A DNA stretch of 64,000 nucleotides from a virus. Below, piece after piece: positions 10,267 to 13,200 of this stretch; position 1 is the stretch's first letter; each line of letters opens with the position of its first letter. Below the pieces are notes generated by a model. The model was not told the DNA's origin and did not search any database. It worked only from the letters and a program-made list of their open reading frames with translations. The stretch lies in IMG/VR virus record IMGVR_UViG_3300027708_000033, positions 32,001 through 96,000 of that record; one strand, 5' to 3'. Position numbers and translations under genes: made by a program.

Positions 10267-13200
10267 TTTGGTCCGCCTGCCACTCTGGTACTAATGAAAG
10301 TGAAATCTTCTCTGGAAAGCTTGAACCATCTGGCACAGATACGTTTATACTGTCAATTTTTCTAATCATGACATCTCCACGTGGTTCTAGGTCGTTTGTC
10401 AAACGTTGCTGAATAAACTGGTCGTCAACAACAAGTGTACACCAGTCTCCAGGCGAGTAACTTCCGACTGCTGGAGTAATAGAGCCATTTACTGATACTC
10501 TTATCTTCATGTCTGGCGGTTTAGCCTCAGCAAGATACCGCTGTGCGTAACTGTACAGTAAGTTTTCGTCGTATATGTCCTGGTCAGTGTGGCTGTCATC
10601 TAGCAAAGGCCATCCAGTCATCGTTCCACTCGTCGGGTTTAGTAGGCTTGTGTCTACTGCAACTGCGTATGGCTGGCTTGCCCCATCACCTAGTTCACCG
10701 ATGTTTCCAACCATGAAGAATCTTGTCGCTGAGTTCTCAGCTGATTCGTCAATTGAAAGGTCGCTAATGTTTCCAGGAAAGTTGAACACTATTTGGTCTG
10801 CGCCGAATGCACTTGGAGGAGCAAATGTTCCCAGGTAAAGAACTCCACCTGGTAAAGCAGAAAGATATGACTGAAGACTATCAGGAATGATAGGCAGCAA
10901 GACAAAGACTCGCTTGAATGTGTTTGTATTAGGGTCGTACGAACAGTCGACTCGATACTCAAAGCCATTGATTACGTCTGAGTACTTATCTAGTTCCTCA
11001 CCAATACTTCTTGTTTCGTATCCACGAAAGTTTATAGGCAAGGTCTGAGTCTGAGAGAATCCAGCTGATGAAAAATCAAACAGCATGTCTGAGTTGTTAG
11101 TGTACCCACCGTAGGTTCCATAGTGGATTTGTGGGTTAGAAGTGGCACTAGCAAAGCCGAATGCTCGTCGTGATGCTTGGTCTCCTGTGCCTGATACTGT
11201 GTACTGTAATCCAGCACCTGCAGTAATTGTGGCAGCCAAGCCAGTGCCACCAAAAGCGCTTCCAGAAGTAGCGATTCCAGTCGGGTTAGCAATCGCGTTT
11301 TCTACTGTCTTCTTAGCCGTTGGGCTGATAGTGTAACTAAACTTGTTAGTACTAACACTGGTTATTGTGGCATTAGTGACGTTGAAGTAAGGGCTAAGAA
11401 CTGTTGTGTTTCCAGTAATGGACTTAGAACTAACAGCTACACGAAGATTCGGGTACGTAGTAGTGCTTTTTTGATAAGTCAATGATGTTCCGCTTGGAGT
11501 AGACACGACGTTACCGTTAGTCACATTGAAGATTCCATCTACGACTGTAGCCACTCCGCTTATTGACGTCCTAGTTCTATCAACTGTGTAAGGCGTAGAG
11601 GTCACAGTAAACGTTGTGTTATTCGCACTAACAACGTCGTACTCGTTTTCAACTGAGTCGATAAGACTTACTGTAGTGGCATCGGCTGTTACTGCAGTAT
11701 TTTCAGCACCGCTGGCCTTCCAGAAAATGTGTGTTGCATCTACAGATGATACAGTCCACGTGCCATTGACTCCGTAGCTGTATGCTGCTGCGACTGTTCC
11801 AGGACTTGACACCGAGGTTCTGTTGCCTGAGTACTCAATTTTGTCGTCATACTGTAAAGTGTAGTCGTCTACAACCTTAGTAACTTTAAATCGACCATTC
11901 TTAAAATAACCTGACCCAATTGGTGATGTCCAGCTAGTGGTCAAATACACACCGGCTTTTAATCCATGTTTAGCGCCAAATTGAATGTTGACTAGGCTAT
12001 ATGTTTTTACATCTGGCTTTGCAGCTTTTCCGTGTTTTGCCACTAAGGTCGGAGTTAGTGTCTTAGTAGTCTTGTACCCGGTGACAGTAATTTTGTCGTT
12101 AGCTTTAACATTGTGATTGAGTGGCGCAGTTAGACGCACTATCTTGTTGTAGATGTAAACTTCGGTACACGAGACTGTACGCCGTGTGACGCCGCTTACC
12201 GTGACTTTATCAGCGACAGCAATGTTATGAGTAGCCGAGGTTGTAAAGACTAATGAATTAGTTGCGTATGTAAACGCGTATCCTGTAATTGCATACGTGT
12301 CTTTTACACCTGTAATTGTTACTGTGTTGCCGACTATTAAGTTATGCGGTGTGGCGGTATCTACTGTGAATGTAGCAATAGAGTTGGCTATACTCATTTT
12401 GCCGGTTGTAGTTTTAGTTAGGTCGGTGACACCTGAAACTGTTACTGTTCCTCCTAATGAATAGCCGTGGGCTTCAGCTGTAGTAAGCGTTGCAACGTTC
12501 GCATTGAGCTGGCGAGCAACCACAGTAGTGGTGTCGTACAGACCGCTTACATCTACTGTCACAGACGCGTTTACAGTTCCTAATCCGTGATTTTCTGATG
12601 TAGCGATTTGGACTATGTTGTTTGAAGACTGACGGTATTGAACTAGTGCGTAGGCGGTAGCCGTAGTACTGGTGAGTGTTCCGCTAGTAGTGGAACTGCT
12701 TTTTATTGTAAAACTTGACGCGTCTCTTGCGATTATTCTGCTGAGAGCTCCGCTGTTGATTGAGACGTACTGCCCGACCGAGAAGGCATTTGCACACTGG
12801 TAAACTGCTGTAGTTCCATTTGCAGATACAGAAGTAACTGTTTTATTTTTTAGAACAGCTGTGGTTACAGTTCCTGGAGACAGTGTAGTTAGGCCTTCGC
12901 TGTTCTTGGTGCCGGTGCTGTACTCAAAAGATGACTTAGTTGGAATGTTTGTCACTTTAACTGTGCCATCAAAACGATTAGTACTTCTAAGTGGATTGTC
13001 TAGACCTTCTAGCGTCACAGACTGGCCAACGTATAAACCATGAGGTGATTCAGTTGTAACAAGCGCAGTTCCTCCACTGAGTGTTCTGCTCGTGGCTCTA
13101 ACATAGACCGGGCTAGTTGCAGCGTAAGTTATACTTCCACCACCACTGTCATAGGTTACGTTTGTTCCTGACACCGAGGTTACTGTTTGGTATCCATCAA

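Follow-up and report, generated by a model that had tools for sequence, protein, structure and literature searches.

A virus related to Microbacterium phages encodes a tail-tip hub protein with a predicted side arm of six beta-barrels nested in mirror order

P0001 is a 1264-residue protein encoded in a 64,000-nucleotide stretch of viral DNA (positions 32,001 to 96,000 of IMG/VR virus record IMGVR_UViG_3300027708_000033; hereafter, the window). It is probably the Tal-type baseplate hub of a siphovirus related to the large Microbacterium phages, with a side arm of six small beta-barrels nested one inside the next, which can be written A[B[C[D[E[F]E]D]C]B]A; the joint probability of hub and nested arm is put at about 0.72. 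According to this interpretation, the hub core would be interrupted after approximately residue 240 by an insert of approximately 740 residues and would resume at approximately residue 980. The insert would begin with three uninterrupted, six-stranded beta-barrels resembling the E1-FCCH domain, followed by six further members of this barrel family. Each of the six would have its insertion point in the b3-b4 loop of its predecessor. The outward chain would lay down strands 1-3 of barrels 1 to 5, barrel 6 would fold whole at the tip, and the returning chain would add strands 4-6 of barrels 5 to 1. Because of this go-and-return path, two chain segments would cross every joint, and both ends of the arm would lie in a single loop of the hub. 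Direct support exists for the order of the half-barrels, for the fold, for nesting at levels 3-6 (in two structure models), and for the conservation of the build. The arm would be stiff, through its double link and long junction strands, and three such arms would presumably project from a trimeric hub.

The nested region (nest) comprises residues 466-962 of P0001 (11165..12655 in the window) and reads as five first halves (N) of three strands, one whole unit, and five second halves (C) of three strands (Table 1). A sequence-only reading of the same DNA had placed the nest at 11130..12630, and the strands of the model move its limits to those given here; the first-half, whole-unit, and second-half motifs that it quoted are all present and in the order it described. 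Each half is a segment of 32-45 residues according to the model strands, and is thus longer than the short motif that marks it. The histidine-containing motifs of the first halves lie at H488, H528, H569, H608, H646, and H695, with spacings of 40, 41, 39, 38, and 49 residues. All 17 homologues share H488, H528, H569, and H646 without exception, and at least 90% of them have H695. No half is lost across the nest in the alignment of these 17 homologues, whose identity goes down to 35% over the whole protein (27% in the search).

Profile models of the two halves were built from uninterrupted units outside the P0001 family, which keeps the comparison non-circular: 141 first halves seeded one model, and 135 second halves seeded the other, which was scored against 200 shuffles. 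(A previous second-half model, seeded from P0001's own segments, was circular, became stuck at approximately 80-90 matches, and was replaced.) The first-half model recognizes the uninterrupted units U1 and U2 as well as N1-N4 of the nest, the latter with independent E-values (i-E) of 9e-6, 3e-10, 1e-9, and 5e-4. Among the second halves, C2, C3, and C6 outscore all 200 shuffles and C5 outscores 199 of them, while C1 is a marginal case, with a score that 6 of 200 shuffles attain. By sequence alone, then, four of the six first halves and four of the six second halves are recognized, and for most copies, as judged by these profiles, the halves are real halves of the family's unit. The remaining ones rest on their motif, on alignment with homologues, and on the structure model.

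An AlphaFold2 model of residues 466-985 (P0018), based on a 17-row alignment, has a mean predicted local distance difference test score (pLDDT) of 86.4 and a predicted TM score (pTM) of 0.65. Secondary structure assignment with DSSP reveals a strict period in P0018: three strands per first half, in segments starting at model residues 1, 38, 76, 118, and 158; a central unit at 196-291; and three strands per second half, ending at 331, 375, 420, 465, and, for the last, near 497-504. Long strands occupy the junctions both on the outward path (E40-51, E77-90, E119-129, and E159-169) and on the returning path (E320-331, E360-371, E408-420, and E451-465). Contiguous solved barrels of about 80 residues align to P0018 over the ranges 196..291, 158..331, 117..375, and 76..420, with 67-83 residues aligned, root mean square deviations (rmsd) of 1.9-3.8 Å, and Z scores of 5.8-10.4 (Table 1). 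Each of these ranges encloses the previous one and has its edges on the boundaries of the strand period, as mirror-order nesting predicts, and unlike what parallel or sequential pairing would give. A second AlphaFold2 model, that of the full-length homologue P0015 (1200 residues, 41% identical in the nest; 31-row alignment; pLDDT 76.2 overall and mostly 80-91 in the nest), repeats the enclosing series as 597..690, 556..731, 517..774, and 478..822. In two models, at least four levels (3-6) are split and nested in mirror order. The mirror nesting that the sequence-only reading had proposed for all six levels holds to this extent; for levels 1 and 2, closure is suggested by the strand periodicity and by one weak complex test, considered below. 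Global Foldseek matches of the nest to birnavirus and nudaurelia capsids (TM 0.07-0.10) are meaningless for an elongated multi-domain model and were set aside.

The single unit is predicted to be a closed, six-stranded antiparallel barrel, as both D6 and D4 of the P0018 model can be superposed on solved FCCH domains; mouse FCCH (2v31), for instance, matches P0018 with Z 6.7-7.0. The assignment to E1_FCCH had been proposed from motifs, and it is borne out by the fold (Z 8.7-8.8 with the FCCH domains of Uba1 and Uba6) while falling below the Pfam threshold: E1_FCCH (PF16190) matches P0001 at residues 518-574 with 17.4 bits (E 0.0049), short of its gathering score of 29.5. This is the only Pfam match within the nest, and it is misregistered, running across N2 into the start of N3. 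PF16190 is also a precomputed annotation in 3 of 16 P0001 homologues. The barrel of phage endosialidases (4HIZ, 1V0E) has the same single-barrel fold and provides the best match, that of phi92 (Z 10.4), as well as that of K1F 424-506 (Z 9.9). This beta-barrel domain of endosialidases binds sialic acid. Both FCCH and endosialidase barrels are single, uninterrupted copies, unlike the nested barrels of P0001, and FCCH-type barrels are reported as outward-facing, single decorations of siphovirus tail-tube proteins (PMC13576161). Elsewhere in the window, members of the barrel family occur in the major tail protein (with the word NNCN, possibly one nested level) and, with the word NC, both in a 381-residue head-module protein and close to the C-terminus of Dit.

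Nesting depth varies among the relatives of P0001. A scan of 1.84 billion representative proteins returned 49 at E up to 0.001, and a Dit-type alignment brought in 80 viral loci besides; together, these gave a set of 92 distinct, complete hub proteins. All 38 short hubs (552-888 residues) have words such as NCNC, NCNCNC, NCNCNCNCNC, or NCNNCC (plus CNCNC, NCNCN, and one NCNCNNCNCNC), and their longest run of first halves is 1 (30 proteins) or 2 (8 proteins); these relatives carry only 2-5 barrels where P0001 has its insert. All 54 long hubs (1185-2198 residues) have longer runs, of 3, 4, 5, and 6 first halves in 2, 9, 23, and 20 proteins, respectively. In this comparison of depth among homologues, which the sequence-only reading had called for, no detected run exceeds 6 in any of the 92 proteins. 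The word is exactly N6C6 in 8 of the 92. Since the detection of halves is imperfect, runs of 3-5 may be undercounts; P0001 itself reads as N5 with one C under drifted models. In four long hubs (P0041, P0044, P0050, and P0057), the run of first halves is broken by approximately 210-250 residues (e.g., N475 N513 ... N763 N800 N837 N874), which suggests that another domain is inserted part-way along the arm.

The best relatives in the phage collection are minor tail proteins of the Microbacterium phages Zooman, A3Wally, Big4, and Cece, and of Actinomycetia phage DSL-LC01. Zooman gp85 (OK040793.1; 1247 residues) has 32.7% identity with P0001, over 97% of the length of P0001, reads NNCNCNNNNNCCCCCC, which is the same N/C word as in P0001, and has the same place in its tail module. 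It is annotated only as 'minor tail protein', and no paper describing its domain build was found. A BFVD model of the 1247-residue viral protein A0A6G6XIJ2 also matches the nest (E 9.6e-32, TMq 0.45). In addition, several tail-fiber-like and baseplate proteins of cyanophages (Synechococcus phages ACG-2014f, Syn30, and S-PRM1) match the nest model in BFVD with Foldseek E values of 1e-10 to 1e-17, which hints, at the level of models, at similar nested-barrel arrays in those phages.

In related loci, a comparable arm appears to be divided between two genes. In Dit-type proteins there, 7-8 first halves stand in a row and just 3 second halves come after them. This imbalance was considered as evidence against nesting and then dropped, as the missing second halves sit in the adjoining gene. 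In locus L001, the Dit gene (5977-8799) ends with 8 first halves and 3 second halves; the next gene (8813-11158), which starts 14 bases past the Dit stop, has an unknown N-terminal domain, four FN3-like repeats, and, at its end, 5 second halves plus a last strand like that of Dit (..KYRSGWAG). The brackets thus balance across the two genes, and the same split arrangement is seen in L002, L005, L006, and L009-L013. Going by the order of the halves, this appears to be a nested arm split over two polypeptides that must fold together. It is a tentative proposal, held with less than even confidence, that actinophage tail tips employ recursive self-insertion as a regular rule of construction and not as an isolated case, that its levels are quantized (one, two, or six in the hub), and that a half-barrel zipper locks two gene products together in sister phages. 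Under such a rule, because self-insertion returns the chain to the loop from which it started, an essential hub could grow a double-linked, stiff, receptor-seeking arm with the hub fold undisturbed.

Several results weigh against a nested arm within each P0001 chain, or loosen the case for it. The first-half model fails to recognize N5 and N6, and C4 is indistinguishable from shuffles by the second-half model (46 of 200 reach its score). A rate covariation analysis of each first half against each second half, with 136 sequence pairs, yielded no signal (the nested assignment ranks 137 of 720), and a PDB sequence search with the family profile gave no matches at E up to 1. The pairing of halves was deduced solely from the first and last aligned residues of the structural-aligner ranges, and Z scores of 7-10 are common for small barrels. 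For levels 1 and 2, no ranges appear in any structure-search list for either model. When residues 1-75 of P0018 (N1 and N2) and 421-506 (C2 and C1) were folded as two chains, they scored 0.40, compared with 0.00 for the best of 3 controls; at least 86% of contacts were shared between the runs, with a partner pLDDT of at least 65. In the calibration of this complex test, 58 of 80 solved complexes and 2 of 110 mismatched pairs attain that mark. Passes of 0.60 or lower are rated weak, since that range contains both of the mismatches and just 7 of the 80 solved complexes. The outer halves therefore receive weak support for pairing at levels 1-2.

These weaknesses bear on two other accounts of the nest. 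The halves could be separate sequential sheets or parallel pairs, with the nesting being a habit of AlphaFold on a threonine-rich repeat with a shallow alignment. The alignments are indeed shallow (17 and 31 rows), C4, N5, and N6 are weak by sequence, the halves do not covary detectably, and the misregistered Pfam match treats N2 and the start of N3 as if they were one unit. On the other hand, the enclosing ranges recur in two models whose sequences share 41% identity over the nest, and relatives contain matching numbers of first and second halves, even where these are spread over two genes. Parallel pairing would also require the linker between the central unit and C5 to reach level 1, for which its length of approximately 25 residues seems too short, judging from the sequence. 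This account is accordingly given very little weight. Alternatively, the pairing could be in mirror order between chains rather than within one, as a 3D domain swap in the trimeric hub that would interlock the three arms. A monomer model leaves room for such swapping between subunits, the outer halves still dock, weakly, as separate chains (0.40 vs. 0.00), and related phages complete a similar arm in trans, as in L001, with 8 first and 3 second halves in Dit and 5 second halves in the next gene. In P0001, though, a single chain carries all of the halves, short linkers join them, and every barrel is closed in the monomer model at high confidence, which makes swapping improbable, if slightly less so than an artifact of modeling. 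The mirror-nested arm folded within one chain is preferred to both.

The identity of P0001 as a hub is indicated by gene order, family, and fold. On the minus strand, the genes run from the tape measure protein (TMP) to Dit, P0001, and the fiber, and the placement of P0001 directly after TMP and Dit is the position of the Tal or baseplate hub protein. Its N-terminus matches phrog_1885 'minor tail protein' (E 1.7e-24). PF06605 (Prophage_tail) has no match in P0001 at E up to 1, and is a precomputed annotation in 3 of 16 P0001 homologues. The best-conserved regions of P0001 are the N-terminal and C-terminal parts of the hub core (Table 1). Fold comparison was made with the model of the homologue P0015, not of P0001, and its Z scores are middling. 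The T5 tail-tip core 7qg9_I aligns with this model over the range 5..1197 (Z 8.3, 186 residues aligned), and the P74-26 tube and the HFTV1 tail also align across 5..1197, with approximately 190 residues. Residues 918-1200 of the model resemble tail-tip proteins of T1, lambda, JBD30, and Chi, and the MuSo2 43 kDa tail protein 3cdd, with Z 7.1-8.0 (T1 9l9p_S, Z 8.0, 192 aligned; lambda 9e7m_Ja, Z 7.6; MuSo2 3cdd, Z 7.3). As a tail-tube-like fold spans 5..1197, the N-terminal and C-terminal parts would form one fold, and the entire barrel array would be an insert in the hub core. P0001 is therefore like Tal or gp27-like hubs in gene position, N-terminal family match, and core fold (Z 7.1-8.3, 186-195 aligned), and differs from them in the interruption of its core by an insert of approximately 740 residues. 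Tal and gp27-like hubs of siphoviruses form a trimer at the tail tip, and P0001 would be expected to do likewise.

The part of the insert that precedes the nest is made up of U1, U2, and the degenerate U3. The first-half model has no match in the U3 of P0001 itself, and matches the aligned unit in 9 of 16 homologues (P0002, P0004, P0006, P0007, P0009, P0011-P0013, and P0015). Past the nest, the return segment has low pLDDT in the P0018 model, from which U1 and U2 were absent. In the P0015 model, contiguous barrels align over 314..907-909 and 242..918. On the basis of this homologue model, the returning chain (residues 963-980 in P0001) may add short strands to U2 and U1 before it re-enters the hub; if that is true, the whole insert would be a single go-and-return path.

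At the center of the nest, the complete basic unit noticed from the sequence corresponds to the whole barrel D6, which is the most basic unit (13 lysine plus arginine vs. 6 aspartate plus glutamate in 96 residues); its WTSPIGSGYFKNGRFKV loop is unbroken in the majority consensus of the 17-sequence alignment. The arm, perhaps through this basic tip barrel, is predicted to act in adhesion by binding cell-envelope polymers. Hints of adhesion come from CBM_4_9 in the neighboring Dit, Peptidase_S74 in the fiber, the endosialidase barrel being the best single-barrel match, and the basic tip barrel. A passive role is the main competitor: the topology would be nested, and the arm would be a strut or spacer that holds parts of Dit or the fiber or stabilizes the tip, and would not bind a receptor. 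The same barrel decorates the tail tube, Dit, and the 381-residue head-module protein in the window, the barrel is described as an outward-facing decoration of tail tubes (PMC13576161), and no ligand site was identified in the P0001 arm. The carbohydrate-type modules of the neighboring Dit and fiber, and the distinctly basic tip barrel with its unbroken WTSPIGSGYFKNGRFKV loop, speak for binding without being decisive. A purely structural arm is considered rather unlikely, while carrying clearly more weight than either of the other pairings of halves. Should the nested arm bind the host envelope, the modular depth of the arm would offer a way to study how actinobacterial phages recognize their hosts.

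The sequence-only reading knew of no described self-insertion as deep as this one, a claim that has to be withdrawn. In the Si3 insertion of cyanobacterial RNA polymerase beta' (RpoC2), SBHM-2 to -5 are reported to be built from distant chain segments (PMC10895346), HABAS domains are called 'recursively inserted' (PMC11515920), and a 2026 survey of 48,551 insertion events mentions 'six-level nested structures' in Si3 (PMC13114784). Like P0001, Si3 (8EMB) has a small beta domain recursively inserted into its own copies, within a loop of an essential protein, to give an elongated arm. The two differ in fold (a sandwich-barrel hybrid or HABAS fold in Si3 vs. a six-stranded, FCCH-like barrel), in host protein, and in biology. 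Si3 is also irregular, with some domain swapping, and has a tip made of two or three continuous domains, whereas the six insertions of P0001 are all in the same loop and follow the regular word N5-unit-C5. Foldseek lists 8emb for the P0018 and P0015 models (E 9.5e-5 and 2.6e-3), with TM of only 0.05-0.10; the likeness seen is one of build principle, and the best fold matches are FCCH and endosialidase barrels.

Deep self-nesting of a single domain has been documented once, in Si3 of cyanobacterial RNA polymerase. For phage tails, no account of nested barrels was found in the literature, including the parts consulted of two baseplate papers, PMC13252515 and PMC13612043 (supplements and subscription journals were not covered). 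A second, more regular case would mean that this build arises independently, in an unrelated fold and in a virus particle. It would also be a clean system for questions of folding, with cultured relatives such as Microbacterium phage Zooman: as barrel 1 can close only once chain synthesis is complete, arms of the P0001 type would be suited to the study of how such chains fold. Since domain finders see half-domains and the Pfam score is sub-threshold, arms of this kind would be invisible in 'minor tail protein' entries.

Table 1. Parts of P0001, structural matches to the levels of its nest, and genes of the tail and head module (P0018 ranges are in model numbering)
Feature	Residues	Position in window	Strand	Evidence or remark
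P0001, whole gene, Tal-like baseplate hub / minor tail protein	1264 in all	10256..14050	-	Open reading frame
Hub core, N-terminal part	1-240	13331..14050	-	79% identity to P0002-13
U1, uninterrupted barrel	245-300	13151..13318	-	First- and second-half models both match, N before C
U2, uninterrupted barrel	316-385	12896..13105	-	First-half model i-E 1.9e-13, then second-half match
U3, degenerate uninterrupted unit	405-465	12656..12838	-	Alignment columns 470-550; absent from P0015-P0017
N1, first half (b1-b3), barrel 1	466-502	12545..12655	-	Strands E2-11, E14-19, E31-37 (P0018); i-E 9.4e-6; would pair with C1
N2, first half, barrel 2	503-540	12431..12544	-	Model strands; i-E 2.6e-10; would pair with C2
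N3, first half, barrel 3	541-582	12305..12430	-	Aligner ranges 76..420, 77..420, 78..419; 78-83 aligned
N4, first half, barrel 4	583-622	12185..12304	-	Aligner ranges 117/118..372-375
N5, first half, barrel 5	623-660	12071..12184	-	Aligner ranges 157-160..331
D6, whole Lys-rich barrel at tip	661-756	11783..12070	-	Aligner range 196..291
C5, second half (b4-b6), barrel 5	757-796	11663..11782	-	Structural ranges; 1/200 shuffles reach second-half score
C4, second half, barrel 4	797-840	11531..11662	-	Structural ranges; not recognized by sequence
C3, second half, barrel 3	841-885	11396..11530	-	Structural ranges; 0/200 shuffles
C2, second half, barrel 2	886-930	11261..11395	-	Model strands; 0/200 shuffles; would pair with N2
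C1, second half, barrel 1	931-962	11165..11260	-	Model strands; 6/200 shuffles; would pair with N1
Return segment	963-980	11111..11164	-	Conserved SNP..YGTYGGY
Hub core, C-terminal part	981-1264	10259..11110	-	85% identity to P0002-13
Level D6 (whole)	P0018 196..291			phi92 endosialidase 255-338, Z 10.4, rmsd 2.0, 82 aligned; UBA6 FCCH 212-291, Z 8.8, rmsd 2.4, 78 aligned
Level D5	P0018 157-160..331			uL3, riboflavin synthase, and FNR-type barrels; Z up to 7.7; 66-77 aligned
Level D4	P0018 117-118..372-375			S. pombe Uba1 FCCH 179-258, Z 8.7-8.8, 72-75 aligned
Level D3	P0018 76-78..419-420			Z 5.8-6.9; 78-83 aligned
Fiber	967 in all	7363-10266	-	Peptidase_S74 chaperone end; next after P0001
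Dit	1304 in all	14097-18011	-	CBM_4_9 modules; phrog_33; SPP1_Dit
Tape measure protein		18008-22360	-	
Major tail protein		25544-27100	-	
Head-module protein	381 in all	27119-28264	-	
Major head protein		28350-30650	-	

A further observation in the window concerns the head module, where an open reading frame of 3599 residues (36573-47372, minus strand) lies between head-module genes.

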